Virus record (IMG/VR): IMGVR_UViG_3300009082_000002
Coordinates: 32,001 to 96,000 of that record
Origin: a virus
DNA: 64,000 nt
Reading direction: 5' to 3' (one strand)
Below, piece by piece: positions 26,115-41,636 of this stretch. Under the pieces are notes generated by a model. The model had not been told where the DNA came from. It did not search any database and saw only the letters and a program-made list of their open reading frames with translations. Numbering within the stretch: position 1 is the stretch's first letter; each line of letters opens with the position of its first letter. The position numbers and the translations under genes were made by a program.

Positions 26115-27569
26115 GTGTCGATGGCCAGTGCGTCAGCTAAAGCGATCCGTGTCGACGAGAAGGAAGAGCTCGTCCGCGCCTTTGGCGAGTATGAGGCCAT
26201 CTCCAATGAGACCCTACGACGCGAGATTCTGCTCAACAGCCGATTCGACCTGCTCGCGGAATACGTGCTTGGCATCGAGCTGGAGCAAGTCCACCGTGAG
26301 CTGATCGCATACGCGCTCGAACACCCGGAGTCTCTGCACCTTGCCTTCCGTGGTTGCGGGAAGACGACTTCCTTCGTCTGCGTGTACATTGTCGGCCGCT
26401 TGCTTCAGAACCCGGAGCTTTGTATCCTGATCGCATCGCGCGCCGGACAGTACGCCAAGGCGATCTTGAAAGAGGTCAAGGGCCACCTAGTCAGCGAGCG
26501 GCTGGTCAGGATCTTCGGCGAGCAGATTGGCGAGAAGTGGGAAGAGACCGAGATCGTCGTCGGGCGAAAGAAGCGAAATACGAAGGAAGCCTCGGTCACG
26601 GCGCTCGGCGCCGAGGGCTCGATGACCGGTCGGCACTTCGACATCATCTTCTTCGACGATGGCGTGGACTTGGCGAACAGCCGCACGCGTGGCCAGCGCG
26701 AGAAGATCAAGGAATTCTACTACACGACTCTCGACCCGTGCCTGAAGCCGGGTGGAGAGCGCAAGGTCGTCGGCACACGCTACCATCCGCACGACCTCTA
26801 TGGCTGGCTCTCCGCTCACGAGTACAAAGGTTGTGCGCAGATCCTTCCGGCCCTGCACGAGGTCCGCGATGGCGGCGGATCGGTCACATACTACTCCAGC
26901 GCGCCAAAGCGCTTCACAGTCGAGTACCTCCTGGGCAAGCGATCCACGATCCCGACCTTCTCGTGGGTCACGCAGTTCCAGTGCACGGCGGAGCGGTTCC
27001 AGGGCAAGGTCTTCAAGCCGGAGTACTTCGAGGCCGAGGGCTTCTTCTTCACCGGCCCATTGCCGACCGGCCCTCTCTTCCAGTCCGTCGACCCTGCCGT
27101 GACCGAGGACACAAAGAATGACTACTTCGCCCACATGACTGGCGTCGCTGATCACGAGGGCCACGTATGGGTCGACGTCTTCCACAACATCCGTATCGAG
27201 TTTCCGAAGCAATCGCAGTTTTGCCACGATGAATTTGAGGCGCGCGATCCGGTGCGACTTGGTATCGAGAGCAACGCATACCAGAAGGCGCTCGGCCAGC
27301 AAATTGTCGCCGACTACCCGGACCTCAAGGGCAAGGTGATCGGCGTTCCGACCGACAAGGACAAGATGACTCGGGCCCTGAAGTTGACAGCCTATTTTGA
27401 GGCGGGCAGAATCCACTTCAGACCGGAGCACAAGGAACTCGTCGAGCAACTGCTGGAGTTCCCGGACGGAGAACACGATGATCTTTTCGACGCCCTGTAT
27501 CTGCTAGTCTTGCTCGGGACGCGGATGCGGGTGAAGAAGAAGCGGCGCAAAGAGCCGGGCGTCCTTTGA
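26115..27569 (+). CDS. terL: Terminase large subunit
   Basis: Walker A AFRGCGKT, Walker B TGRHFDIIFFDD, GTRYH..D, nuclease VDPA / IESN / HDDLFDAL. Confidence 0.95.
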   Translation: MSMASASAKAIRVDEKEELVRAFGEYEAISNETLRREILLNSRFDLLAEYVLGIELEQVHRELIAYALEHPESLHLAFRGCGKTTSFVCVYIVGRLLQNPELCILIASRAGQYAKAILKEVKGHLVSERLVRIFGEQIGEKWEETEIVVGRKKRNTKEASVTALGAEGSMTGRHFDIIFFDDGVDLANSRTRGQREKIKEFYYTTLDPCLKPGGERKVVGTRYHPHDLYGWLSAHEYKGCAQILPALHEVRDGGGSVTYYSSAPKRFTVEYLLGKRSTIPTFSWVTQFQCTAERFQGKVFKPEYFEAEGFFFTGPLPTGPLFQSVDPAVTEDTKNDYFAHMTGVADHEGHVWVDVFHNIRIEFPKQSQFCHDEFEARDPVRLGIESNAYQKALGQQIVADYPDLKGKVIGVPTDKDKMTRALKLTAYFEAGRIHFRPEHKELVEQLLEFPDGEHDDLFDALYLLVLLGTRMRVKKKRRKEPGVL

Positions 27570-27580
27570 AGGGAGCAGGC

Positions 27581-29407
27581 ATGGCAGATCAGAAGGTGGT
27601 GAGGATGCGACGGCGCCCGGTCGTGGGCTCCGCGAAGTCTTCTCCCAGCGACGCAGTCGAGAGCGGTGCAGTTCACATCGTGGACCACGCGTCTCGAGCT
27701 GTCGTCAAGGCGCTGGTGATCGAGGCCGACGCGGAGAAGGTGCCGGTGCCGACGTCCCAGGTCATGCCCGACGATCCCTTTCAGTCGCTCCTCGACAACC
27801 GTCAGATCCTCGCGCCGCCACTCGACCCGCGGCTGCTCGCGTCGCTGTGGGAGTACAACTCCCACCTCGGCCCGTGCATCGCGACGATGATGGTCAACTG
27901 CGAGAGCTTCGGCTATCAGTTCGAGCCTCGCATCCGCGTCAACGAGGACACGTCGAAGGCGGTGCGCCAGCGCATCGAAGAGGAGCGCCTCATCCTCGAC
28001 AACTTCTTCGGCAACTGCGTGATCGAGGGCGACGACAGCTTCACCGGTCTACGGATGCGGAAGCGGCAAGACGAGGAGGCCATCGGCTTCGCGGCGTGGG
28101 AGGTCATCGAGGTCAACGGCGACCTTCTCGGCTTCAACTACATGCCAGCTCATACCGTCCGGCTGACGGGGCTCGACGAAAAGCGGGTCCGTATCGGGCG
28201 CAAGCTCCTCGTCCGCGGGGCCAGCGGTGTCTTCTCCTACGTCGAGCGACCGGTCTGGCGGCGGTTCCGCAAGTTCGTCCAGGTGCGCGGGACCAAGATG
28301 AGGTGGTTCAAGGAGTACGGCGACCCGCGCATGATGAACGCGGACTCTGGCGAGTACGTCGACGACCCCGCCAAGCTCCCGGTTCACAAGCGGGCCAACT
28401 CCGTCCTCTTCTTCGCGCTGCCCGCGCCGCGCACGCCATACGGCATCCCGCGCTACATCGGCAATCTTCTCGGGGTCTACGGCTCGCGCGCGACCGACGA
28501 GATCAACTTCTTCACCTTCGAGAGCAACAACGTGCCGTCGATGGTCGTGATGGTCAGCAACGGGATGCTGACCGAGGGCTCGGTGGATCGGATTCAGAAG
28601 TTCGTTGAAGCGCAGGCCAACGGCCAGCGGAACTACAGCCGCTTTCTCATCCTCGAAGCGGAGACCGACAGCGAAGGTCTCGGCGACCCGGGCCGCGTCG
28701 CGCTCCATATCGAGCCGCTCACGAATCAGCAGCGGACCGACGCTCTCTTCACCGAGTACAAGAAGCAGTGCAAGTCCGATGTGCGTCAGAGCTTTCGCAT
28801 CCCGGACCTTTTCTTCGGCGAAGCCTCATCGTCTGCCGGAGGCGCGGTCGGCGCGATGGAGATCATGAGAAAGCTCACGGATGAACAGGTCTTCATGCCG
28901 GAGCGCAACGCCTTCGACGACCGCATCAACAAGCTCATCATTCCGGCGCTGGGCGTGGTCTATCTGAAGTTCAAGAGCAACACGCCGGAGACGACGGACA
29001 ACAAGGATCTCATCCGCATTCTCGCAATGGCCGAGAAGTCCGGTGGCGTCACCCCACGGATCGCTCGCGAGGTACTCAACCGCGTGGTCGGGCAGAACCT
29101 CGGCGACGTCACGGATATCGAGCCCGACGTCCCCTTCTCGCTCCAGGTCGCGGAAGCTGCACGCAGTCAAGGCGATCCGCGCACAGCGCTCTCCGTGCCC
29201 GGTACCAACTCGCTCCGCAGGATGGGCGCGACGACCCGCGCCGAGCTAGGGCTGGAGTCCACGGCCAAGGCGGAGGACGGCGACGAACCGTGGGAAGGCG
29301 AGGCCGTCATCGCAAGCCTCGGCTTGCTCCACAACAAGATCGCCGAGGAGCAAGCTCGCCGCGCTGGCAAGATGGTCAAGCGCGAGCGGCCGAAGCCCGT
29401 CGAGTAG
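27581..29407 (+). CDS. Portal protein (PBSX-like)
   Basis: Follows TerL; IG.AAWEV, P.HTVR, YGIPRY, FF..N.VP, SFRIP motifs; GGAG SD. Confidence 0.9.
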   Translation: MADQKVVRMRRRPVVGSAKSSPSDAVESGAVHIVDHASRAVVKALVIEADAEKVPVPTSQVMPDDPFQSLLDNRQILAPPLDPRLLASLWEYNSHLGPCIATMMVNCESFGYQFEPRIRVNEDTSKAVRQRIEEERLILDNFFGNCVIEGDDSFTGLRMRKRQDEEAIGFAAWEVIEVNGDLLGFNYMPAHTVRLTGLDEKRVRIGRKLLVRGASGVFSYVERPVWRRFRKFVQVRGTKMRWFKEYGDPRMMNADSGEYVDDPAKLPVHKRANSVLFFALPAPRTPYGIPRYIGNLLGVYGSRATDEINFFTFESNNVPSMVVMVSNGMLTEGSVDRIQKFVEAQANGQRNYSRFLILEAETDSEGLGDPGRVALHIEPLTNQQRTDALFTEYKKQCKSDVRQSFRIPDLFFGEASSSAGGAVGAMEIMRKLTDEQVFMPERNAFDDRINKLIIPALGVVYLKFKSNTPETTDNKDLIRILAMAEKSGGVTPRIAREVLNRVVGQNLGDVTDIEPDVPFSLQVAEAARSQGDPRTALSVPGTNSLRRMGATTRAELGLESTAKAEDGDEPWEGEAVIASLGLLHNKIAEEQARRAGKMVKRERPKPVE

Positions 29408-29416
29408 GATCGAAGG

Positions 29417-32400
29417 ATGATCCTCGCAGCGCGCAAGCTAGGTCCGATGGATGCCATCTTCCGGTCGATGACCGACGAGCAACTTGCGACCGCGAAGGCG
29501 GTCGCTCGCGAAGCTCTCCAGTGGTCGGGCGTACTCAAGGCGGCAGATGTCTATCTCGGCGTCGACGAGGATCTCTCCGCGACGCTCCTGCACAAGTGGG
29601 ATGCCAAAGCGAAGGAGCAGATTGACAAAGGCGCCAAGGTGCTTGCGAAGGCGCAGAAGGGCGAGGTTGTCCAGTCCACGCTGAAGGGTACGTTGTGGAA
29701 GCTCGGCAAGGTGATGGGCGAGGAGTATGGCGAGGCCGTGTTGCCCGACTTCATCCGCGCGACGCTACTGACCTGGAGTCTGGCAAGCAAGGAAACGATG
29801 GGCCGACTTCAGCTCAAGTGGTCAACCGAACTTGTCGACCAGAACGCCGCAGCTCGGCTTTCCAAGTTCCACACCTATTGGGTCGGAAAGCACTACGAAA
29901 CTAGCATTGCGAATTCGCTCCAGATCGCCACGCGGCAGACCATCATCGAAGGCGGACTTGCTGGCACGCAGGCAGCCAACGCCTTCCGCGACATCGCCTC
30001 GAAGTACTTGGCCGGCAAGGGCGAGTCCTTCCCCGAGGTTCCGAAGGGCTGGACTGGCACGACGGACGAGTACTTTGCTGGGCTCGCGAATCACGTCGGC
30101 ACACAGGCCCGCGTCTTCAGCCGACTCGAATCCTACGAGCGCGTCGGGATCACGACCTACACCATCGTCGCCGTCCTCGACAACCGGACGAGCGATATTT
30201 GCCAGATGATGCACGGGCAGACATTCACGGTCGAGCAAGGTCTCGGCGTCGCGGAGACCTGGACGGAGGAGTACACTCCAGAGGCAGTCAAGGAGAAGGC
30301 CGGCTGGATGCGCGCGCAGGACGCAGCCAAGCTCGCCGGGCTGTCGGACTACAAGCCCGGCACGGTCTCACCAAAGATCAGCCCGAAGGGAATGGACGCA
30401 CTGGCCGAGGCTGGCATGGCGCTTCCGCCGTACCACTTCCGCTGCCGGACAGACATCGTCGCGGAGCAGGAGGTCATGACCTTCCCGAGCGGCGGCGAGC
30501 CGACTTACAAGCCGGTGAAGCCGCCGAAGGCCGAATCGCCGAAGCCGCCGCCGGCCGCGCCTACGCCGCCATCCAAGGCGACGGGCGGATTCCCGTGGCA
30601 GATGTCCCAGCTCACGTCGGTTGAGAAGTCCGCGAAGGGAATGCACGCCAAAGCCTTCTTCCACGACCCGGACGGCAACGAGTGGATGTTCAAGCCCGCG
30701 CCGGAGGGGCTGCGTTTTCGTGCAGAGGTCGAGAAGCTGGCTGCCGATGCGGCGCGCGCGCTCGAAGTCGACACGGCCGACGTCTTCATGGTTGAGCACG
30801 AAGGAAAGATCGGGACGATTCAACGCCTCTTCAAAGACATCAAGCACGACGGGCTCACCAAGGTCGGCGTCCAGGGCTTGACGCAGGAGCAGGTCGCACA
30901 GCTCCAGCGCCAGCACATTTTTGACTGGCTCATCGGGAACAACGACGGCCACATCGACAACTTCCTCGTCTTGAAGGACGGCAAGCTCGTCGGCATCGAC
31001 CGAGGGCAGGCCTTCCGCTATTTCAAGACAGACAAACTCGCGCTCGACTACAACCCCAATGCGCGCTATGGGATCAAGGTCTTCTACAACGACGTCTTCG
31101 CAGCGGCACGCGACGGCAAGTTGCCGACTGGCGTAGAGATGCTCGGGCTCGACGCGCCGGAGATTGCCAGTCTGGTTAAGAAGGCCGAGTCGCTGTCCGA
31201 CGAGCAGTGGCTTACGATCTGGCGGCCGTACATCGACGGCGCGATGAAGAACAAGAGCCTCGCCTACGGCTCGCGCGCCGCCTTTGAACGCGAGCTACTT
31301 CGACGGAAGAACCAGCTAGGGAGTGATCTCGACGAGTTCTATCGCGGCCTCCTCGGAAAAGGACGCGCGGCGCGTCGGACAGCGGAGACGCAGAAGGGTG
31401 TCCTGACTCCGGTTGACAAGTCCTTCGTGAGTGAGATGCAAGCCGCGAAGAACCGCGGCAAGTCCGTGCTCGTCGCGTCGGAAGAGATCGAAAACGGCAA
31501 CGTCCTCGTCTACACCTACGCGGACGGGACGGTCGTGGTCGAAGGCAAGATGCGGAAGCTCGCCGACGAGATGGTGCGGGCGCAGCTTGCTGGCCCGCAG
31601 GCTGCGGGCGCAACGCCGGGGACCGACTCGCTGTGGGACGACGTGCTCTCCTGCATCAAGTCTTTCAATCACCATCTCGGGCCAGGCGGCAGCGGTACGA
31701 TCCCGGACAGCAAGCAACGTCTTTTCGTGCGGACGCTCAACGCGGCAAAAAAACAATGGGCCGAAGGCTGGACCGTACCGGGCGGGACGCAGGCTGGACA
31801 GATGGGTGAATACTACGTCAAGCTCCTCCAGCAGTATGGGACCGAGTCGCTCGGGATGCGGCTGACCACAACGACAAAGAAAATGCTCGGCGTCAAGAAC
31901 CAGCCGTTCAAGGTGCCAGGCGTGAAGGCCAAGGCACTCGCTGGTCGCGTGAAGCGGTCGAGCATCGAGAGAATCTACGAGGAGGAGCGCAAGCTGGTCC
32001 GCGGAGTGATCAAGAACAAGCACGGCGAGATTGCGAGTCAGTCCACCTTCGGATGCGGAATGGATGAGACCAAAGAGATGATTGTGGCTGTGCTCGATGA
32101 CGGCACGGAGATCCACTACATCCCACACAACGGATATAGGCAGGGCCAGGCGTACTCGAAGCAAGGCCGCTTCAGGATTAAGGTGCAACCGGCTACCGGC
32201 GCGAAGGACGTCACGCCGAAGCAAGTCCAGAAGGCACTTGACGCCATCGGTGATCTCGGCGTCTCGCCGAAGCTGATGACCGAGGCCGACTTCGAGTTGC
32301 TCTACTTGCAGAAAAACCAGTTCGCGATGGGCTACGCGAACGATGCGGCTTTCGCCAACATCCCGGCCAACGGCTCAACCGAGGAAAAAATCCAGGCGTA

Positions 32401-33067
32401 CCTCGACGCCTTCAGAAAGAAGCTGCGGAAAAATCCGCGTTCGCTGCCCGGCTACGATCCGCGGCCGGTCTACTACAGCGGGGACAACGCGGGCATTCCG
32501 CGTTTCCGGCGTTTCGACATTGACCGGAAGAAGCTAGCAGAGGCGGACCTTGAATTCACACACAGAGTTCAAGGGGGCGCGGATGAAGTGCTTCTTTCGA
32601 TCATCGACGGAGAGTCTGGCGGCTTGATCTCGACGGAGGAGAAGCTCCGTCGCGGAGTTGAAATCAGCGGGATGAGCCCTGGCGAGGACCAGATGACCGG
32701 CGGTGCGCAATACGTTTTCGCGCGGGCGAAGGGGATTGGCCGGGAGCGCAACTGGAACATGATCATCTTTAAGAAGGAACTGGCACTCGACACGAACATG
32801 GTCTCCTATTCGACAGACAAATTCGGGTGTATGGAGCCAGGCAGGAAGGAAGCGACTCGCGCGAAGACGTTTCAGAAGTTGATGGGTTTCCGCAAATTCG
32901 ACGCTAATGAGTCGCTCATCAAAAACGAGATTCCGCTGGACATGTGGGAGCACGTCATCGTCAGGCGGTCCACGCGGGTCAAGCTACTCGATGAACTCGA
33001 AAAGCGTGGCGTGAAGACACTTGGCGGGAAGCCCGTCGAGGAGTTCGTGATCGGGCTCGGGAGGTGA
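29417..33067 (+). CDS. MuF (SPP1 gp7-like) head protein fused to a HipA/PI3-4-kinase-like domain and a C-terminal putative toxin domain
   Basis: AVLDNRTS.IC..MHG and PPYHFRCR (MuF); WMFKP, FDWLIGNNDGH.DN, IDRGQAF (kinase); position after portal. Confidence 0.85.
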   Translation: MILAARKLGPMDAIFRSMTDEQLATAKAVAREALQWSGVLKAADVYLGVDEDLSATLLHKWDAKAKEQIDKGAKVLAKAQKGEVVQSTLKGTLWKLGKVMGEEYGEAVLPDFIRATLLTWSLASKETMGRLQLKWSTELVDQNAAARLSKFHTYWVGKHYETSIANSLQIATRQTIIEGGLAGTQAANAFRDIASKYLAGKGESFPEVPKGWTGTTDEYFAGLANHVGTQARVFSRLESYERVGITTYTIVAVLDNRTSDICQMMHGQTFTVEQGLGVAETWTEEYTPEAVKEKAGWMRAQDAAKLAGLSDYKPGTVSPKISPKGMDALAEAGMALPPYHFRCRTDIVAEQEVMTFPSGGEPTYKPVKPPKAESPKPPPAAPTPPSKATGGFPWQMSQLTSVEKSAKGMHAKAFFHDPDGNEWMFKPAPEGLRFRAEVEKLAADAARALEVDTADVFMVEHEGKIGTIQRLFKDIKHDGLTKVGVQGLTQEQVAQLQRQHIFDWLIGNNDGHIDNFLVLKDGKLVGIDRGQAFRYFKTDKLALDYNPNARYGIKVFYNDVFAAARDGKLPTGVEMLGLDAPEIASLVKKAESLSDEQWLTIWRPYIDGAMKNKSLAYGSRAAFERELLRRKNQLGSDLDEFYRGLLGKGRAARRTAETQKGVLTPVDKSFVSEMQAAKNRGKSVLVASEEIENGNVLVYTYADGTVVVEGKMRKLADEMVRAQLAGPQAAGATPGTDSLWDDVLSCIKSFNHHLGPGGSGTIPDSKQRLFVRTLNAAKKQWAEGWTVPGGTQAGQMGEYYVKLLQQYGTESLGMRLTTTTKKMLGVKNQPFKVPGVKAKALAGRVKRSSIERIYEEERKLVRGVIKNKHGEIASQSTFGCGMDETKEMIVAVLDDGTEIHYIPHNGYRQGQAYSKQGRFRIKVQPATGAKDVTPKQVQKALDAIGDLGVSPKLMTEADFELLYLQKNQFAMGYANDAAFANIPANGSTEEKIQAYLDAFRKKLRKNPRSLPGYDPRPVYYSGDNAGIPRFRRFDIDRKKLAEADLEFTHRVQGGADEVLLSIIDGESGGLISTEEKLRRGVEISGMSPGEDQMTGGAQYVFARAKGIGRERNWNMIIFKKELALDTNMVSYSTDKFGCMEPGRKEATRAKTFQKLMGFRKFDANESLIKNEIPLDMWEHVIVRRSTRVKLLDELEKRGVKTLGGKPVEEFVIGLGR

Positions 33068-33864: not shown

Positions 33865-34038
33865 ATGAGCAGAGATCCGCTTGTTGAGATCGAGCAGCGC
33901 TACCGCGCGAAGAGGCTCTCCGCTCTCGGCCTCGCCAGCATCATCAGACGAGCCTGCGACACCTTTGAGGCATCCGAGCGACTGCGCAAGCGTTGGTCCG
34001 CACGCAAGGCCGTGATCGATCAGGAGGCCGGTCGATGA
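33865..34038 (+). CDS. 57-aa hypothetical protein (not in ORF track)
   Basis: GGAGGGG SD, ATG 33865, stop overlaps the polyprotein ATG (ATGA). Confidence 0.5.
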   Translation: MSRDPLVEIEQRYRAKRLSALGLASIIRRACDTFEASERLRKRWSARKAVIDQEAGR

Positions 34039-37000
34039 AGATCAAGGACATCTCGCCGACTTCCTTGCGCGGAGTAAAGGACCAGGAGCTTCTCTCGCTC
34101 CACCTTCGGACTCATCAGCTTTACGGCGCGAACTTCGGGCCGGACGCCCCGCCAGAGCGCGGCTACCGCGACGACACGGGAGACACGGCCAAGGACGGCT
34201 TGAGGCTCGACGAGGAGACCGCGCGGAAGATCTGGCGCGGCGAGGTCAAGGCGGTCACCTTCTCCGACGACCCCGGTGACGTTGAGCGCGCTCTGTTCCT
34301 GCTGTCGCCCGGCTTCGCCTACGGCATCATCCGGCTTGACGAGACCGACACCGACGACCACAAGTACAAGGTCGACTACTTCCGCGCTTTCGAGGTGCCG
34401 CTCACATTCAAGGGCACGGGCGACGGCCTGCTCGTGACGGGAGTCGAGATCACGTCGGAGGAGTCGCCGCTGTCGCTGGAAGACCTGGTCCACGCTCACC
34501 AGTTCATCCTCGACGAGATGAACCGCCGGAAGATGCGCCACCAGTGGGCCTCGCAGCTCGACGACGAGACCAGCCCGGGCGAGGAGATTGAGAAGGCGAC
34601 CGGACCTTTCAAGCGCTGGGGTGGGTCTGCCCAGTACGCAGCAAAAATCGCGAAGTACGTACCAGCGAACGCTGGCGCGTACATCGAGCCCTTCGCTGGT
34701 GCGGCCAGCGTGTTTTTCTCACTGACCGACACGCCGAGGAAGCGCGTGCTGGCCGACCTGGACCCGGAGCTAGTTCACGCCTTCAAGATGATCCAGGGCG
34801 CGGCGAAGAACGGGCTCATCAAGGCGCTCGAAAAAAAGGACCGTGTTGTCAGCGAAAAGCAGTGGCAGAAGTTGCGGCATCGGATTCCGAGCGGCGACGT
34901 CGAGCGCGTTCATCGGTTCCTGTACCTGCTCGGCGGATCGTGGTCCGGCGTGCGGAGTGGCGCGCGCCCGAACAAGAAACGAGTCGGTCAGATTTCCTAC
35001 GATCCGAAGCGGCTGGAGAAGTTCATCAAGCCGTTGCAGGGCGTGACGCTCAAGAACCAGAACTGGCAGAAGACGCTGAAGGACAACGACGCGCCGGACG
35101 CCTTCTTCTTCATCGATCCGCCGTACCCGGGCGAGTGGGACAAGAACGCCGACGACACAGGCACGGACGGCAAGCAGTTCGACGTCGAGGCTCTTGTCGA
35201 GGCGATGAAGGATCTGAAGGGTGGCTGGCTTCTCGTTCTTGGCGACACCAAGACCCAGACGGATGCGCTGGCGAAACTGGAGAAGGAAGCCGGCGCATCT
35301 CGCTTCAAGATCCAGTTGAGCGAGGCTGCGAGTTCTGGTGGGCACAAGGAAGCCTATCGGTACTTCGCGATGCGCCCGCTTCAGTCCCGCGTGCGGAAGG
35401 CCGACGACGTTGGCGTGAGCCGCGACCAGGTACTCGACCTCATGGAAGAGGCCGGCAGCTTTGTGGTGGTACCGAGTTATGTGTCGCTCGTCGGCTCCGT
35501 CGTGACCGGCGAGGATGACCAGTCGGCACACGACATTGATCTGCTTGTTCGCGATGACGAGATCGATTCCAAGGTCGGGCTCAAGCTGGACCGCCTCTTT
35601 CCCGCGTCGATGCGCGACAAGGTCCACTACATCCCCGACCCGCAGGGACCGAATTGGGATCACCTGCCGCTGTACGATCTGGTCCTGCGGAAGCGCAGCG
35701 CGCTGGAAGTGGTCGAGGTCGATGAACCGGAGTACCACCCCTTCCTGTCCGGCGATGTGCGCCGCTACGGCGAGCAAGTCGCGAAGGGGAAGTTCACCAT
35801 CGTCCGTGGAATCTGGGGCTCGCCCGGCGGCAAGGCTTTTCTCGCAAAGCGCATCGCCACCGTCATCCCGCCTCACAAAATCTACGTCGAGCCGTTCGCT
35901 GGCGGTGGCGCGGTTCTCTTCGCGAAGCCGCCGGTCGAAAAGGAAGTCGTCAACGACCTCGACAGCGAGATCGCCTTCGCGTGGCGGTTCGTCAGCAAGG
36001 TCACGGACGACCAGCTCGACGCGCTCCGCAAGATGAACTGGGTGGCGAGCGGCAAGCTGTTCGCCAAGCTGCGTGACATGAAGCCGCCGTCCGATCCGGT
36101 CGAGCGATTTCATCGGTTCATGTACCTCTACCGCTGGAGCATCAACGGCAACCGCGAGAAGACGCACACGATGCCGCCGACCTACGAAGGGCTCCGGCAG
36201 CAGGCAGTCGAAGCGGTCGAGCGGTGTCGCGAGCGCGTGCATGGCCTCATCGTGCGGAGCGCCGACTACGAGAAGGTTATCGACGAGTTCGACAGCAAGG
36301 ACACCTTCTTCTTCATCGATCCGCCGTACAAGCATTATGATGCCCAGCTCACCGAGGAGAAGAAGCAAGAGGACTTCGACGAGGAGCGATTCGTCGAGGT
36401 GCTGAAGAAAATCAAGGGCAAGTTCCTTGTGACCTACGGAATCCGCAGCGGCACGGATCTCTTCAAGGGCTTCACGGTCCAGCGGTGGCAGCACCGAGGT
36501 CGGCCCGGGCCGGCCGTGGGCGGCAAGTTCCAGAAGGTCACGACGCTCATGGTCTCAAACTATCCGCTGCCGCAGCGGACGCGCAAGGCGAAGGTGGGGC
36601 TCATGCAGCCCTTCACTCCGCTGAAGGCGAAGGGCGGGTACCATCAGGGCGAGTTCTTCGAGGCCGACCCGCTGTGGGATCTCTGGGCTGGCCCTGCGAT
36701 CAAGGACGGGAAGACCGTCGCCGTCGAAACCAAGTTCGACGGAATTCGGATGGTCATCCACAAGGAAGGCGACAACGTCGCGATCTACACCGAGGATAAG
36801 AAGCGCGACCGCGCGAGCATCCTTCCGGACTTGGCCGACGAGGTTCGCAAGCTGACAGTCGAGAACGTGATCCTTGACGCCGAGGTCGTCTGGTGGAAGG
36901 GCAGCAAGCCGCTGGCCCGTCACGACATGATGGCGCTCGTTGTCGGCAAGGACCCGATCAAGGGCGAGGATATCCGGGCCAACGTGTTCGACGTCCTGTG

Positions 37001-39323
37001 GTTCGGCGGCGAGGGCAGCCTGGCCGATGAGTCGTGGGAGGATCGCCAGTCGTACCTGCGCAAGGTTCTGCCGAAGGATGGGAAGCATCTCATTCGCGTG
37101 GTGCCGCGGCTGGTCAACAACCGGCGCGAGTTCGATGCCGCACTCAAGGCTGCGCGTCGAGCAGTCGGCAGCGAAGGCGCGATGCTGAAGCTCGCCAATG
37201 CGCCGTACGATCTGGAAGGCCAGACTGGCGCGTGGGCCAAGCTCAAGGACGTGTACGAGATCAAGTGTGTCGTCATCGGTGTCCGCAAGAAGATCCCGAG
37301 CGAGCAGGAGGACCCCGGCTTCAAGAAGGACCCCTCGCGCTGGAACTACGCCGGTATCAAGGAGCCCAGCGCTTTCACCTACCGCTGCGCCGTCCGTGGT
37401 GAGGGTGGCAAGCTCATCCCCATCGAGGGCGAGCGGACGTACACCGGCTCGGATCTCAAGGTGCGGTGGGTCGAGAAGGGCCAGAAGGACCCGGTGACGG
37501 GTGAGACCGCGAGCGAGAGCGAGTGGCGCGGTACCGACGATCCGAAGCTCTGGAAGATGGGGCTCGGCTTCAACAACCGCGACGTCGGCGACACCGAGTA
37601 CGGCACGACCTACGGCACCGGAGTCGAGGCGAAGATCGGTGACGTCATCACGGTCTCTCCGGTCTTGGTCCGAGAGTGGGTCGGGGACAGCGGCCGGCGT
37701 CACTACTCGTGGACCTTCCCCATCGTGCGCGAATCCGACCCGACACGCGACGAGCCTGACCGCGTCGAAGACCTGCGGCGCATCGCAGCGGCGAGCCGGC
37801 AGCGCGCACCGGAGAAGATGCCGAGCGAGGAAGCCGTCGAAACCGCGGCGGTGTCGAAGTCCGTCGCGAGGATCGCCCACCTGCAGAAACAGCGGCGCGG
37901 CGACCTGGACCCCGACGAGACCAAGCTCAATCGCGAGGAGGAACGCGAACGGCAGGAGAAGATCACGGGCGACCCGTACATGGTCGAGCAGAAGGCCAAG
38001 GCCAAGGCACGGTTCGTCTTGCAACAACACTATCGCGGGTTCTGGTCGCCGGACGAGCGGAAGCAACTGCGAGACGGAATCACGCGGGCTCGCGAGCTGG
38101 CCGAGTCCGACAAGAAAGATGAGGCCAAGGATCTGCTCAAGGGTCTCTGGCAGGAGTACCAACCGCTCATGCTCAAGGCCAGCATCGCAGAGATCCGCGA
38201 GGCAGCCGAGGCCGCAGACAACGCAGGCGAAGGCGAGGTCAGTCCGGCGGTTGCGCGCCGTCTATCGGAAGCGGTGCCGATGTTCGATGAGCTCGAAGGG
38301 GTCGAAGATCGGATCGTCAACCGGGGCAACGTCCACACCGACCTTCGGATGGAGTCGCCGTCCGGCGACTGGCTGATCGGCTGGACGCTGGATACGCCGA
38401 AGCTGGCCCTGCAGACGCTCGACGGGAAGGCGCATGACCTCCTCCGGTCCTACGTGATTGACAACAAGCCGGACGACAACGCGCTCGCCCAGCGCAAGCT
38501 GGTCCAGCCCGAGAACTGGCTGGCCATCGTCAACGAGAAGAAGCCGATCTACCAGACCGCTCCGGGCGACGTCGGCTCAACGCGCGGCACCGCTGGCGAG
38601 TACCACTACATTGACTCGGGCGTTGTGATCTTCGGCGTGCAGAAGTCCGACTATCACGAGTACTTCTTCTTCCCCGAGAAGCACAAGGGCTGGGCCGGTC
38701 GGTGGGGGCTGCAGCTCATCGAGGGGAGCCCGAGCTACGCCCGCGCGCCGAGCGAGTTCTGGATGGCCAACCGGCCGAAGGAAACGCAGACCCCCTACAT
38801 CCAGACGCACGACCTCGACGAGGAGGAGAAGAAGGCCAAGACCGACAAGATCGACCTCGTGTGGAACCCCGACACGGTCGAGGCACTGAAGGCGGTCGGG
38901 TACGAATCGCTCGCCGACGTGTCGAAGTCCGCTGGCGGCGAGCTTGAACCGATCAGCGTCAACGTCCGAATCGTGAAGGCGGCGAAGGAGGAGCGGTACG
39001 TTCTCGGCGTTGTGATGAAACCGGATGACGTCGACGCCCACGGAGAGATTACCACGGCAGCCGAGATCAGGAAGGCTGCCCACAATTTTCTTGTCAATGG
39101 TCCGAAGATCGGCTATCAACATGAAGAGACACCTGGAGGTCTGATCTTGATCGAGAGCTTCCTGGCCCCCGCAGAGTTCAAGCTCGGTGGCGAGACGATC
39201 ACTGTTGGCACCTGGCTCATCGCGGTTCGCGTGAACAACGACAAGGTGTGGAAGGCCGTCAAGGAAGGGAAGATCACCGGCTTCAGCATCGAAGGTTACG
39301 CAAAGAAAGTGCCGCTCGAATAG
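34035..39323 (+). CDS. Polyprotein: Dam MTase, NTase-like, Dam MTase, ATP-dependent DNA ligase, LigD phosphoesterase-like, XkdF-type prohead protease
   Basis: Two EPFAG..DPPY sets (DPPY at 35115 and 36318); VGS..DID (35490-35540); ETKFDG (36726), LDAE, FDVL, EGAMLK, WAKLK; FVLQQH..HTDLRME; PDDVDAHG..AAH.F..H..IES..GTW..GFSIEG. Confidence 0.85.
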   Translation: MKIKDISPTSLRGVKDQELLSLHLRTHQLYGANFGPDAPPERGYRDDTGDTAKDGLRLDEETARKIWRGEVKAVTFSDDPGDVERALFLLSPGFAYGIIRLDETDTDDHKYKVDYFRAFEVPLTFKGTGDGLLVTGVEITSEESPLSLEDLVHAHQFILDEMNRRKMRHQWASQLDDETSPGEEIEKATGPFKRWGGSAQYAAKIAKYVPANAGAYIEPFAGAASVFFSLTDTPRKRVLADLDPELVHAFKMIQGAAKNGLIKALEKKDRVVSEKQWQKLRHRIPSGDVERVHRFLYLLGGSWSGVRSGARPNKKRVGQISYDPKRLEKFIKPLQGVTLKNQNWQKTLKDNDAPDAFFFIDPPYPGEWDKNADDTGTDGKQFDVEALVEAMKDLKGGWLLVLGDTKTQTDALAKLEKEAGASRFKIQLSEAASSGGHKEAYRYFAMRPLQSRVRKADDVGVSRDQVLDLMEEAGSFVVVPSYVSLVGSVVTGEDDQSAHDIDLLVRDDEIDSKVGLKLDRLFPASMRDKVHYIPDPQGPNWDHLPLYDLVLRKRSALEVVEVDEPEYHPFLSGDVRRYGEQVAKGKFTIVRGIWGSPGGKAFLAKRIATVIPPHKIYVEPFAGGGAVLFAKPPVEKEVVNDLDSEIAFAWRFVSKVTDDQLDALRKMNWVASGKLFAKLRDMKPPSDPVERFHRFMYLYRWSINGNREKTHTMPPTYEGLRQQAVEAVERCRERVHGLIVRSADYEKVIDEFDSKDTFFFIDPPYKHYDAQLTEEKKQEDFDEERFVEVLKKIKGKFLVTYGIRSGTDLFKGFTVQRWQHRGRPGPAVGGKFQKVTTLMVSNYPLPQRTRKAKVGLMQPFTPLKAKGGYHQGEFFEADPLWDLWAGPAIKDGKTVAVETKFDGIRMVIHKEGDNVAIYTEDKKRDRASILPDLADEVRKLTVENVILDAEVVWWKGSKPLARHDMMALVVGKDPIKGEDIRANVFDVLWFGGEGSLADESWEDRQSYLRKVLPKDGKHLIRVVPRLVNNRREFDAALKAARRAVGSEGAMLKLANAPYDLEGQTGAWAKLKDVYEIKCVVIGVRKKIPSEQEDPGFKKDPSRWNYAGIKEPSAFTYRCAVRGEGGKLIPIEGERTYTGSDLKVRWVEKGQKDPVTGETASESEWRGTDDPKLWKMGLGFNNRDVGDTEYGTTYGTGVEAKIGDVITVSPVLVREWVGDSGRRHYSWTFPIVRESDPTRDEPDRVEDLRRIAAASRQRAPEKMPSEEAVETAAVSKSVARIAHLQKQRRGDLDPDETKLNREEERERQEKITGDPYMVEQKAKAKARFVLQQHYRGFWSPDERKQLRDGITRARELAESDKKDEAKDLLKGLWQEYQPLMLKASIAEIREAAEAADNAGEGEVSPAVARRLSEAVPMFDELEGVEDRIVNRGNVHTDLRMESPSGDWLIGWTLDTPKLALQTLDGKAHDLLRSYVIDNKPDDNALAQRKLVQPENWLAIVNEKKPIYQTAPGDVGSTRGTAGEYHYIDSGVVIFGVQKSDYHEYFFFPEKHKGWAGRWGLQLIEGSPSYARAPSEFWMANRPKETQTPYIQTHDLDEEEKKAKTDKIDLVWNPDTVEALKAVGYESLADVSKSAGGELEPISVNVRIVKAAKEERYVLGVVMKPDDVDAHGEITTAAEIRKAAHNFLVNGPKIGYQHEETPGGLILIESFLAPAEFKLGGETITVGTWLIAVRVNNDKVWKAVKEGKITGFSIEGYAKKVPLE

Positions 39324-39338
39324 CGGTCGGGATGGGCG

Positions 39339-40352
39339 ATGTCGAAGAAGGCCGAGCGCGAACTCAAGGACATCGTGGTCACGAATGTGGACCTTGTGGA
39401 CCGCGCCGCGAACGAGGAACAATTCGCAGTCGTGAAACGGAAGGAGGGCCGAGGGATGGCCGACAAGACCAAGGTGAAGAAGGACGAAGAGACCGAGGAG
39501 GAGAAGGTGGCCGGCGAGGTGGCAGGCGCCGCCGAGACCGAGACCGACACGGAGGCCAGCACCGATGAAGGCGGCGACGACAAGAGCGCGGTCGCCAAGA
39601 CGGCCGAGGCCGTCACGGGCCTGACCGCGCGGCTCGACTCGCTCCTCGACCACCTGGAGAAGAAGGGCAAGACCTCGAAGCAGGACGAGGACGAGGAGGA
39701 CGTCACGAAGGCGGACGGGATCAAGATGGCCAAGGACGCGCTCGCTGCGGCCCTCGTCGTCAAGAACCTGCCGGCCGACGCGAAGGCCAAGATCGAGTCG
39801 GCAATCGCCCTGCTCGACAAGATGAAGGCCAACGGCTACGGCTACCCGAAGCCGACCGAGGCCAAGAAGTCCGAGAGCGTCGTCGGCGACGCCGAGGCCG
39901 TGGCCAAGGCCGGTCGCATCCTGTCGAAGGCCAACCTCGGCAAGCTCCAGACCGCGGCCAAGGCCATGAACGACGCGACCGAGACGATCACATCCATGCT
40001 CAAGCAGGCGATGGGCACGACCGACGAGGAGGAGGACGAGGAGGCCAAGTCGAAGACGAAGAAGGCCAAGGCCAAGAAGCAGGACGACGAGGAGGACGAG
40101 ACCGACGTCGAGGCCAAGAAGGCCAAGGGCAAGAAGGCCGAGAAGGCCGAGGACGAGGACGAGGAGGTCAAGAAGTCGCTACTCGCGATCTCCGACAGCC
40201 TCACCAAGATCAGCAAGCGGCTCGACGACGCCGAGGCCGCCGTGGGGATCACCAAGTCCCTCGGCGACGGCGAGGATGCTCCCGAAGGCGAGACGGTCAA
40301 GAAGTCGCAAGGCGGCCTGTGGGCCGGACTCGGCCTGGTGCCGGGGCGCTAG
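39339..40352 (+). CDS. Capsid scaffolding protein with N-terminal protease-fold strand
   Basis: N-terminal RELKD..VDLVDRAAN..F.V.K; K/E/D/A-rich helical body; lies between protease and capsid; internal AAGGAGG + ATG at 39456. Confidence 0.75.
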   Translation: MSKKAERELKDIVVTNVDLVDRAANEEQFAVVKRKEGRGMADKTKVKKDEETEEEKVAGEVAGAAETETDTEASTDEGGDDKSAVAKTAEAVTGLTARLDSLLDHLEKKGKTSKQDEDEEDVTKADGIKMAKDALAAALVVKNLPADAKAKIESAIALLDKMKANGYGYPKPTEAKKSESVVGDAEAVAKAGRILSKANLGKLQTAAKAMNDATETITSMLKQAMGTTDEEEDEEAKSKTKKAKAKKQDDEEDETDVEAKKAKGKKAEKAEDEDEEVKKSLLAISDSLTKISKRLDDAEAAVGITKSLGDGEDAPEGETVKKSQGGLWAGLGLVPGR

Positions 40353-40427
40353 CAGCAAGGACAACCGACGCGTTGACCGCGTAGGAAGAACCGGGTGAAG
40401 GAACCCACGAGAGAAGGAGGCAGGAAT

Positions 40428-41636
40428 ATGCCGGCAGTGACCAACAGAGAGGCGCTCAAGAAGGCGGTCATCACGACGGACTCGATCACGACCGCCGGGA
40501 AGCTCAACCCCCTCCAGGCGGATCGGTTCATCGACTTCGTCTGGGACGTGACCAAGCTCAAGGGGCACGTGCGGACCGTCAAGTTCCGCAACGACGAGAT
40601 GTACATCGACAAGGTCGGGGTCGGCACTCGCGTCGCGGTGCCGAAGGTCGAGGCCGTGGACCCGGGTGTCCGGCGCGGCATCACGACCTCGCGCGTGACG
40701 CTGAAGCCGTCCGAGGTCATGTGCCCCTTCGAGATCAGCTACGAGATGCTCGACGAGAACCTGGAAGGCGAGGCCTTCGCCGAGCACCTGGTCAAGATGT
40801 TCGCCACGCAGTTCGGCAACGACATGGAGGAGCTGTGCATCAACGGCGATGCGCTGGGCCCGGCAGTCCTCCAGTCCGAGTACGTGGCCGGCGGCAGCGC
40901 GACCAAGTACGTCAAGGACGCGTACCTCGCGCTTCACGACGGCTGGCTGACCCTCGCGCGGCAGGGGCACGGTGTCGACTTCGCCGGGGCCAACGTGAGC
41001 AACCGCCTCTTCAGCCGACTGATCAACGCCCTGCCCGAGAAGTTCAAGAAGGACCGGACCAAGCTCCGCTTCTTCTGCTCCACGGACTTCGAGCAGAACT
41101 ACCGCGAGAAGGTGGCCGCCCGGGCGACCGGCAAGGGTGACGTGGCGCTGATGAGCGAGATGCCGCTGACGCCCTTCGGCGTGCCGCTCATCGCGGTGCC
41201 GCTGCTGCCCTTCCAGCCGAAGGTGGTCCAGCACATCGTCCTGACCGGCACCACGGCGACCGCGCTCCTCTTCAAGGATGTGACCAGCGTGGTCGTGACG
41301 ACCTCGACCCTGGACGCCACCCCCGAGGATGCGTACACCGAGGGCGCGGGTGGTGACTACGTGCTGGATGCGGTCAACGGCACCATCGCTCGGACCGCCG
41401 GCTCGACCATCGGTTCCGGCGCGACCGTGAAGGTGACCTACAACGCCGAGGCCCAGGTCATCTGCACGCACGAGAGCAACTTCATCATGGCGCTCGGCCG
41501 TGACTCGATCCGGCTGGAGACGGACCGGGACATCTTCAAGTCCACGCTCCAGTACTCGCTGACCGCCAAGATCGACTGCGAGTTCGAAGAGGCCGATGCG
41601 ATCAGCTTCGGCTACAACATCGGGCTCGACGTCTAG
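40428..41636 (+). CDS. Major capsid protein (HK97 fold) with beta-rich insertion
   Basis: G.LNP.QA.RFI, EISYE.L.EN.EG, F..D.EEL..NGD, DGWL, LP.K; AAGGAGG SD; extreme codon bias. Confidence 0.93.
   Translation: MPAVTNREALKKAVITTDSITTAGKLNPLQADRFIDFVWDVTKLKGHVRTVKFRNDEMYIDKVGVGTRVAVPKVEAVDPGVRRGITTSRVTLKPSEVMCPFEISYEMLDENLEGEAFAEHLVKMFATQFGNDMEELCINGDALGPAVLQSEYVAGGSATKYVKDAYLALHDGWLTLARQGHGVDFAGANVSNRLFSRLINALPEKFKKDRTKLRFFCSTDFEQNYREKVAARATGKGDVALMSEMPLTPFGVPLIAVPLLPFQPKVVQHIVLTGTTATALLFKDVTSVVVTTSTLDATPEDAYTEGAGGDYVLDAVNGTIARTAGSTIGSGATVKVTYNAEAQVICTHESNFIMALGRDSIRLETDRDIFKSTLQYSLTAKIDCEFEEADAISFGYNIGLDV

Follow-up and report, generated by a model that had tools for sequence, protein, structure and literature searches.

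Capsid N-termini and scaffolds are the classical substrates of phage prohead proteases. T4 gp21 follows the cleavage code L/I-x-E, and HK97 gp4 (MEROPS S78), which is not known to carry enzyme cargo, cuts the delta domain of gp5 at a Lys-Ser bond. For SPN3US gp245, the cuts in head and ejection proteins, measured by mass spectrometry, follow an A-x-E code (PMC10052503). In phage polyvalent proteins, enzyme domains of unrelated kinds, among them methylases and NTase, form a single polypeptide encoded among virion genes, and the assemblin-like peptidase of this group is described, in the portions of that work used here, as always C-terminal and is predicted to have a processing role (Iyer, Burroughs, Anand, de Souza and Aravind 2017, J Bacteriol; PMC5512222).

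The window, a stretch of 64,000 nucleotides from an IMG/VR virus record, encodes a polyprotein that is flanked by terminase, portal and MuF genes upstream and by scaffold and capsid genes downstream. Its modules follow in the order N-terminal domain, D12 MTase 1, NTase-like module, D12 MTase 2, ATP-dependent DNA ligase, unassigned domain and XkdF protease, with Pfam matches to PF02086 (twice), PF01068 and PF14550. As in polyvalent proteins, two D12 MTases, a ligase and a protease are joined in one ORF among virion genes, and the protease is C-terminal: it reaches the stop codon here, and in almost every one of the related loci, which were drawn from IMG/VR for comparison, 0-34 aa separate it from the end of the ORF. 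For the domain comprising residues 1290-1645 no Pfam match at E<=0.01 was found, and Foldseek with a 538-aa AF2 model (mean pLDDT 58) gave no useful match. The start at ATG 34035 was adopted from the 92%-identical relative P0005, while residue numbers count from TTG 33993. The gene and the Lys sites at its module junctions are the following:

34035..39323 (+), polyprotein gene, translated to 1762 aa from ATG 34035; the frame is open from TTG 33993 and ends with stop codon TAG 39321-39323
34587..34598 (+), junction 1, I-E-K201/A, three residues upstream of the first conserved MTase motif; VSK/A in P0005
35391..35402 (+), junction 2, V-R-K469/A, where MTase 1 meets the NTase-like module
35778..35789 (+), junction 3, V-A-K598/G, left edge of the MTase-2 cassette; residue 4 of PDB 7m6b aligns to residue 606
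36579..36590 (+), junction 4, T-R-K865/A, right edge of the MTase-2 cassette, where the ligase begins
37851..37862 (+), junction 5, V-S-K1289/S, 3' of the ligase; VAK/S in P0006
38919..38930 (+), junction 6, V-S-K1645/S, distal site upstream of the protease; PEK/A in P0006, VKK/S in P0007, FAK/S in P0008 and VKK/D in L002

Read-through of the in-frame TAG, joining protease and scaffold, was rejected. In most related loci the scaffold lies in another frame, which implies that the shared frame in this phage is a coincidence.

Compared with the described systems, this polyprotein resembles the polyvalent proteins in its multi-enzyme make-up and its C-terminal capsid-type peptidase, and InPase, listed in that study for phage polyvalent proteins, also occurs in relatives of this polyprotein (PMC5512222). 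The peptidase class is called 'rather limited' in distribution in the part of the study considered, whereas thousands of homologues were found here. That part contains no cleavage motif, cut positions, ligase-plus-MTase cargo or split scaffold, and our literature search found no paper describing a Lys code. The polyvalent architecture as such is already known (PMC5512222).

T4 gp21, phiKZ gp175 and SPN3US gp245 likewise use one three-residue motif across capsid, scaffold/core and packaged cargo, with propeptides cut at several sites; here, cargo junctions, scaffold and capsid N-terminus share a conserved hydrophobic-x-K/small motif. P1 is Glu in those systems and Lys in this one, and we infer cleavage here, whereas for SPN3US it is mass-spectrometric. 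Moreover, their cargo carries its own N-terminal targeting propeptide, while in this ORF the cargo precedes the protease in one chain, and the capsid protein would lose only ~12 residues. HK97 gp4 is alike in Pfam naming lineage (Peptidase_S78_2), in kind of enzyme and in a P1 Lys with small P1', but belongs to PF04586 instead of PF14550. Instead of a delta domain, the present phage has a capsid motif at residue 12 from Met and a separate 337-aa scaffold gene. Bacillus phage 0105phi7-2 encodes a homologous protease (gp5) and capsid protein (gp6) with the same capsid N-terminal K/A position (PMC10219371), and has a comparable element, L-K-K-S-Q-G, close to the C-terminus of the scaffold. Its gp5 is a single protein without cargo that consists of an N-terminal V-S-x-V-D-x-A-A-N peptide, followed by the protease and then the scaffold. 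In the locus studied here, cargo takes the place of this N-terminal peptide, and the peptide heads the separate scaffold gene.

The sequence-only reading had placed seven junction lysines in the polyprotein, and all seven proved exact in residue and position: K201 (IEK/A), K469 (VRK/A), K598 (VAK/G), K865 (TRK/A), K1289 and K1645 (both VSK/S) and K1662 (IVK/A). At junction 1 the alignment to PDB 2dpm begins at residue 198, and MTase modules of relatives also have sites at their N-terminal flank. At the position of junction 2, P0006 reads VAK/G and P0007 KKK/A, in both cases before a conserved NTase-like block and despite different upstream modules. In the column of junction 4 before the ligase, these relatives read VEK/A and VTK/A, respectively. 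In comparison with P0006 and P0007, the MTase-2 cassette is an insertion whose edges fall exactly at two Lys/small sites, and in P0001, P0006 and P0007 module breakpoints coincide with K/small sites. Thus, Lys/small is retained at the junctions of relatives while flanking residues, and even flanking modules, vary. At junction 5, around which AF2 model confidence is moderate to low, P0007 reads LSP/S with Pro instead of K1289. This loss of the Lys after the ligase implies that cutting need not occur at every junction. Junction 6 lies within an AF2 segment of pLDDT<50 (model residues 397-427).

The seventh lysine, K1662, is a different case. Although the residue itself is as claimed, its role as the junction preceding the protease was rejected, since the strand that it ends is present in 129/131 representatives, including stand-alone proteases of 129-144 aa, and falls inside the region aligned to T4 gp21. 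Its presence in stand-alone proteases implies that K1662 belongs to the protease domain and is not a clear junction; at most, it may be an N-terminal trimming site.

The association of the motif with domain ends was then examined across relatives. K[ASGT] occurs at +4/+5 after the C-terminal N-Y of the MTases in 17/30 non-redundant flanks (1.4 expected). In 21 non-redundant inter-domain linkers 36 sites were counted, compared to 8.8+-2.8 expected, and 15/21 linkers have a site in their first 8 residues (1.1 expected); these linker values (36 sites; 15/21) were matched by 0/2000 composition-preserving shuffles, P-values that overstate independence because the non-redundant sets consist of related sequences. 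The anchors were set by rule, using profile alignment and a short pattern, with anchors and offsets picked after the sequences had been seen. Linker motifs mostly adjoin domain ends, and acidic spacers between cargo modules have the Lys motif at both ends. In free-standing D12 MTases and in PDB chain 2dpm the sequence stops 0-4 aa past N-Y, before the Lys site, and in the tail of 7m6b, which continues past N-Y, no K-small was found at the junction position. Judged from these sequences, the Lys/small site lies outside the cargo fold. P1' is not strict, with D, N, R or K at some homologous sites.

Within the polyprotein itself, 32 K[ASG] and 15 [VILT]xK[ASG] were counted. The latter amount to 0.10 per lysine, the same rate as in the other Lys-containing proteins of the window, so recurrence of the motif alone is no evidence. 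The expected enrichment of [VILT]xK[ASG] was accordingly absent at the level of density and present at the level of placement: 6/15 sites fall in six inter-domain windows covering 6.9% of the length, exactly one per window (binomial P=3e-4; probability of 15 random sites reaching all six windows, 1.5e-5). The edges of these windows were taken from Pfam, PDB and homology-block boundaries with the sites already known, so this placement test is not fully blind. The six windows are not Lys-rich, containing 9/146 lysines of the polyprotein, and 6/9 of these are motif lysines. Nine further copies of the motif lie inside domain cores, and a reading as cut sites must assume that these are inaccessible.

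The candidate enzyme for such cleavage is the C-terminal domain of the same protein:

38970..39320 (+), XkdF-type prohead protease domain, including the strand that ends in K1662 (38976-38978)
39120-39122, 39285-39287 and 39033 or 39153 (+), candidate catalytic residues His1710, Ser1765 and either Asp1681 or Glu1721

This domain matches PF14550 (Peptidase_S78_2) with 103.8 bits against a cut-off of 24 over residues 1659-1772, and PHROG 3017, head maturation protease, at 1.9e-36. H1710, S1765 (within G-F-S-I-E-G), D1681 and E1721 are invariant in an alignment of 85 sequences, suggesting that His1710 and Ser1765 probably form the active site. In structural comparison, the AF2 model of the domain (pLDDT 88.9) had T4 gp21 (5jbl_A) as best match, with Z 7.8 and rmsd 3.0 A over 103 aligned residues and a Foldseek probability of 0.97 for 5jbl; VZV protease followed at Z 4.8, and then unrelated folds at Z<4. 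The model thus predicts the fold shared by assemblin, T4 gp21 and the herpesvirus capsid protease. Among the thousands of homologues, most of the best 150 have N-terminal cargo, and in ~150 representatives the protease is nearly always C-terminal, behind variable cargo that includes MTases, ligase, UDG, GNAT and InPase. A phiPsa374-like "methyltransferase" was rejected as a known fusion: the gene encodes a 151-aa protease domain only, which implies that its label is wrong.

The same motif was looked for in the other head proteins of the locus:

39339..40352 (+), scaffold protein, 337 aa, with a PHROG 3017 match at its N-terminus
39435, 39597, 39906, 40173 and 40254 (+), scaffold Lys sites kept in three relatives: K33, K87 (VAK/T), K190 (VAK/A), K279 (VKK/S) and K306 (ITK/S)
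40428..41636 (+), major capsid protein, XkdG-like, PHROG 1623, starting at ATG 40428
40461-40463 (+), Lys codon of the capsid site L-K-K23/A, numbered from GTG 40395 and equal to residue 12 from Met

All previously noticed copies of the motif, those of the scaffold and that of the capsid N-terminus, are present in the translations. Their conservation is uneven. In the three relatives of the scaffold, K124 (VTK/A) is not conserved and K322 (the last VKK/S) only partly so, while the N-terminal L-x-K/A of the capsid protein is kept in 14/15 non-redundant relatives. Conservation was borne out for the junctions, the capsid N-terminus and five scaffold positions, in part for the last scaffold VKK/S, and neither for the scaffold VTK/A nor for the MuF protein. 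The suggestion that the motif extends into early MuF did not survive alignment: the sites do not recur at fixed positions with a small P1', and since three aligned MuF fusions have no conserved hydrophobic-x-K/small column, they were dropped from the proposed code. The linker between MuF and kinase is Pro/Lys-rich. By this alignment, the MuF-kinase fusion without a conserved site serves as a negative control within the same phage.

Mass spectrometry of 0105phi7-2 virions bears on the capsid site. Capsid residues 1-10 were never detected, and a peptide beginning right after the homologous K11/A12 was abundant (PMC10219371). This fits removal of the capsid segment that precedes the homologous Lys/Ala, by analogy and in a suggestive manner only, because the digest used trypsin, which itself cuts after Lys. 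Nothing usable was found in the literature on mature N-termini of XkdG-type capsids (including PhiCh1 and KIL phages).

We consider it probable (about 0.62) that the Lys motifs are cut sites of the C-terminal XkdF-type protease, which would release packaged enzymes from a capsid-targeted polyvalent polyprotein. The comparative evidence from junctions, scaffold and capsid fits this interpretation, and the loss of K1289 in P0007 does not. According to this proposal, the protease domain and the scaffold would enter the procapsid together, with the N-terminal enzymes carried along by the protease domain. Once active, the protease would cut after Lys in exposed (V/I/L/T/A)-x-K / (A/S/G/T), at sites that flank every cargo module, at times two per junction around an acidic spacer, and that also lie along the scaffold and ~12 residues into the capsid protein. 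The products would be two adenine methyltransferases, the NTase-like module, the DNA ligase together with the domain next to it, and the protease. The same cutting would break up the scaffold and trim the capsid, and the released enzymes would stay in the head, from where they could enter the host along with the DNA.

Other explanations were weighed against this one. Lys/Ala-rich proteins yield many x-K-[ASG], and the junction pattern might be a product of looking; the 32 K[ASG] of the polyprotein, a per-Lys rate equal to background and the failure of the MuF copies in conservation agree with this. It appears very improbable, given that the junctions are not Lys-rich and yet have 6/9 of their lysines in the motif, that enrichment at the rule-set anchors goes far beyond composition-preserving shuffles, and that the position is conserved across relatives with different cargo. 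The junction motif could also be conserved and functional without being cut by the phage protease, as a linker cap, as a DNA or capsid contact, or as target of a host trypsin-like protease, the polyprotein remaining one chain or being processed otherwise. The loose P1' at some sites is compatible with such a role, as is the MuF fusion, which is presumably packaged in the same head and is without such sites. We nevertheless regard it as unlikely, because the motif is common to cargo junctions, scaffold and capsid N-terminus, three unrelated classes that share only the head protease, because free-standing cargo homologues are without it, and because its presence at both ends of acidic spacers is what spacer excision predicts.

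Finally, the fused protease may cut, but outside the head: in cis in the cytoplasm ahead of assembly, with the enzymes then acting in the producing cell, for instance in the methylation of progeny DNA, or only after ejection into the next host. Methyltransferases and ligase could indeed serve replication, and in the part of the polyvalent-protein study used here both prepackaging and post-injection processing are considered for other peptidases (PMC5512222). Against this, the gene lies in the head module between MuF and scaffold and carries, fused to the cargo, the one protease for which entry into the procapsid is obligatory, and the Lys-rich composition of the polyprotein is shared by the MuF fusion. 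In addition, prohead proteases of the assemblin / T4 gp21 fold are generally activated upon assembly. Cleavage outside the head consequently seems improbable to us, and release of the enzymes inside the head by the fused protease is the preferred reading.

More tentatively, and as a possibility that we hold to be rather doubtful in its full extent, cargo-XkdF fusions could represent a general plug-and-play system of capsid delivery. Cassettes bounded by hydrophobic-x-K/small upstream of the protease would enter the procapsid, be excised together with the acidic spacers and be delivered with the DNA, while V-S-L-V-D-R-A-A-N, moved from the protease to the scaffold N-terminus, might bind the protease in trans and thereby recruit the polyprotein.

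Should the Lys code be real, the mature head proteins of thousands of uncultured phages, including the enzymes released and their sizes, would become readable from sequence. The Glu-specific capsid-protease codes of T4, phiKZ and SPN3US would gain a Lys-specific counterpart, and in laboratory phages proteins could be loaded into such capsids by a simple rule of design. Moreover, the code would account for the entry into virions of methyltransferases, ligases, glycosylases and other repair or counter-defence enzymes that have no tag of their own.

The head module is encoded on the plus strand of the window, with the following features:
26115-27569, + strand, large terminase
27566-29407, + strand, portal
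29417-33067, + strand, MuF fusion with a HipA-like kinase, 1216 aa (Pfam HipA_C, 31.3 bits)
33993 (start of open frame; probable ATG 34035) to stop at 39323, + strand, polyprotein (translation, Pfam)
39339-40352, + strand, scaffold, 337 aa
40428 (ATG) to 41636, + strand, XkdG-like major capsid protein

Pfam assigned two D12 adenine methyltransferases (MTases) and one ATP-dependent DNA ligase to the polyprotein, and an XkdF-type prohead protease to its extreme C-terminus (PF14550, 103.8 bits). Neither the NTase-like module (470-598; residues are numbered from the TTG at 33993) nor the domain 1290-1645 (window 37860-38927) had a Pfam match at E<=0.01, and the AF2 model of the latter was poor apart from a confident helical hairpin at residues ~1353-1410. 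This architecture is that of the phage "polyvalent proteins", in which, according to the sections available of the describing article, assemblin-like peptidases are always C-terminal and probably process these proteins; cut sites were not found in those sections (Iyer et al. 2017, PMC5512222). In the MuF fusion the HipA/PI3-4-kinase-like domain is followed by ~600 more residues; the MuF protein of the related locus L003 lacks the fusion and stops at the equivalent of residue ~349. Lysine makes up ~8% of the MuF fusion and the polyprotein versus 1-3% of most other ORFs in this window of 63-66% G+C, and the scaffold is visibly Lys-rich too. By this bias in composition the head-internal proteins stand out.

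The sequence-only reading had proposed that an x-K-[A/S/G] motif, here treated as hydrophobic-x-Lys/small with Lys as P1, recurs at the polyprotein junctions as a candidate cleavage code. All seven lysines claimed were correct in coordinates and neighbouring residues: K201 (IEK/A), K469 (VRK/A), K598 (VAK/G), K865 (TRK/A), K1289 and K1645 (both VSK/S) and K1662 (IVK/A). The recurrence itself stayed at background, with 32 K[ASG] and 15 [VILT]xK[ASG] in the polyprotein and 0.10 motifs per lysine, the same as in other Lys-containing window proteins; the bare motif count is unremarkable. What held was the placement of the motif, which is non-random and conserved. When domain cores were delimited from Pfam, PDB and homology blocks, six inter-domain windows comprising 6.9% of the chain each contained exactly one of the 15 motifs, and 6 of the 9 lysines in these windows (of 146 in total, hence no Lys enrichment) sat in a motif. 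As these six windows were drawn with the sites already known, which bears on both the binomial P of 3e-4 and the probability of 1.5e-5 that 15 random sites strike all six, further tests were based on relatives and rule-set anchors.

The seventh lysine did not behave as a junction. K1662 is part of the protease domain, where it ends a strand of the pattern [VI]-x-[LIV]-[LIVA]-K. Of 131 representatives, 129 have this strand, stand-alone proteases of 129-144 aa among them, and K1662 may at most serve as a trimming site. The true pre-protease junction is VSK/S at K1645, in a probably flexible segment that was modelled with low confidence. The AF2 model of the protease domain itself was confident (pLDDT 88.9, 85-sequence alignment). 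Its top structural match by a clear margin was gp21, the prohead protease of T4 (5jbl; Z 7.8, rmsd 3.0 A over 103 residues; Foldseek probability 0.97), followed by the varicella-zoster virus protease (Z 4.8). In the same 85-sequence alignment His1710, Ser1765, Asp1681 and Glu1721 were invariant. On this model the gp21 match identifies the polyprotein C-terminal domain as an assemblin-fold protease of capsid maturation, in line with its Pfam name, although XkdF has been called unrelated in print (PMC7824862).

The protein search identified one relative 92% identical to the polyprotein (P0005) and three that carry swapped cargo. P0006 consists of four C5 MTases, the NTase-like module, ligase, an unassigned domain and protease; P0007 of an N-terminal domain of no known type, the NTase-like module, ligase, an unassigned domain and protease; and P0008 of three D12 MTases, another domain and protease. 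In alignments with P0006 and P0007 the K/small sites coincided with homology breakpoints. The transition from the NTase-like block to the ligase reads VEK/A in P0006 and VTK/A in P0007, and at this transition the polyprotein carries the entire MTase-2 cassette as an insertion, edged by VAK/G on the left and TRK/A on the right. Upstream of the NTase-like block, where the preceding modules differ, the three proteins read VRK/A (polyprotein), VAK/G (P0006) and KKK/A (P0007), and in P0006 a Lys follows each of the four C5 MTases (K/G, K/S, K/D and K/G). The post-ligase site is not universal, since P0007 has Pro at the position of K1289 in this alignment.

An IMG/VR scan yielded 80 loci and an exhaustive profile search 6734 protease-domain homologues. 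In nearly all of the 80 loci the protease was the final ORF domain, as it was for most of the 150 best representatives of the 6734. The ORFs span 130-2845 aa and vary in the cargo at their N-terminal side, which includes D12 and C5 MTases, ligase, UDG, GNAT, a metallo-beta-lactamase fold and InPase. P0092 combines GNAT, metallo-beta-lactamase fold, ligase and UDG, and P0041 has a D12 MTase with InPase behind the protease. The 151-aa 'DNA methyltransferase' of Pseudomonas phage phiPsa374 (NC_023601.2 35996-36451) is the XkdF protease domain alone; KIL, VCM and vB_PpuM phages share this label, which probably spread from the MTase-protease fusions that make up PHROG 1530.

Taking the C-terminal N-Y of D12 MTase modules as anchor, K[ASGT] occurred at +4 or +5 in 17 of 30 non-redundant flanks (<=50% identical) versus 1.4 expected from 2000 shuffles of each flank, which reached 6 at most, and the residues between N-Y and Lys varied freely. 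In 21 non-redundant inter-domain linkers [VILMFTA]xK[ASGT] occurred 36 times (8.8+-2.8 expected), with a site in the first 8 residues of 15 linkers (1.1 expected) and in the last 10 residues of 10 (1.7 expected); none of 2000 shuffles matched any of these three values, although shuffling preserves composition and not the relatedness of sequences, so that the shuffle P-values are upper bounds on significance. With sites at both linker ends, many junctions thus have a site pair bracketing an acidic spacer. Five free-standing phage D12 MTases and the solved chain 2dpm terminate 0-4 residues past N-Y or the matching position, and the solved chain 7m6b, with a tail ~20 residues longer, has no K-small at that place. 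The Lys site thus belongs to the fusion context rather than to the MTase fold.

The motif that the sequence-only reading had noted at the capsid N-terminus, L-K-K/A with Lys as residue 12 from Met, was conserved among relatives. It aligns with N-R-x-[IL]-L-x-K/A-D-L, present in ~55 relatives, and among N-termini <=60% identical the Lys column was kept in 15/15 and hydrophobic-x-K/A in 14/15. Bacillus phage 0105phi7-2, whose protease and capsid are homologous, has I-E-K11/A12 at the corresponding position. In its published virion mass spectrometry peptide 12-38 was represented by many spectra and residues 1-10 by none, which the authors took as a loss of ~10 residues, noting that trypsin bars a firm call on K11 (PMC10219371); these spectra are the sole experimental hint, and a weak one.

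The scaffold sites stood in part. In three relatives of ~55-65% identity K33, K87 (VAK/T, directly behind an acidic low-complexity stretch), K190 (VAK/A), K279 (VKK/S) and K306 (ITK/S) were kept, VTK/A (K124) was not conserved and the last VKK/S (K322) only partly. The site claimed in early MuF fell away: the alignment of MuF fusions had no column combining hydrophobic P3 with small P1', and the Pro/Lys-rich MuF-kinase linker had no conserved Lys/small site. The Lys code thus stops short of MuF, which serves as an internal negative control.

Near its start the scaffold has a conserved peptide, V-x-V-D-L-V-D-R-A-A-N...F-A-V-V-K-R (residues 9-35, window 39363-39443). The gene that follows the cargo-protease fusion in nearly all such loci encodes a scaffold headed by V-S-L-V-D-R-A-A-N...F-L-V-V-K-R, and canonical XkdF protease-scaffold proteins (e.g. 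0105phi7-2 gp5) carry a V-S-L-V-D-R-A-A-N-type peptide N-terminal to the protease. The polyprotein TAG and the scaffold ATG share one frame, 4 codons apart (window 39321-39338); read-through as a family feature is unlikely and the shared frame coincidental, because most related loci have the scaffold in another frame or overlapping.

Altogether, candidate protease cleavage sites are the best explanation of the motif sites, to which we assign a probability of about 0.6. While domain architecture, protease fold and the placement and conservation of the motif are established, cleavage and the proposed release of free enzymes in the head are inferred. The protease domain would carry the N-terminal enzymes into the procapsid and, once activated, cleave after Lys at exposed hydrophobic-x-K/small sites, liberating enzymes and spacers, dismantling the scaffold and trimming the capsid protein by ~12 residues, while motif copies in folded cores would be protected. 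One lead on polyprotein recruitment is the conserved N-terminal peptide of the scaffold, which may attach to the protease in trans and so tether the scaffold to it.

That proteases of this fold apply one cleavage code to capsid, core and ejected proteins is well established. T4 gp21 cleaves after L/I-x-E, and HK97 gp4 at Lys-Ser. For SPN3US gp245 cleavage occurs after A-x-E (PMC10052503). A description of a Lys code was not found in literature searches. Compared with known systems, this phage differs in its putative Lys at P1, where gp21 and gp245 have Glu, in cargo fused straight to the protease instead of bearing its own targeting propeptide, and in its site-bounded cassettes and split scaffold.
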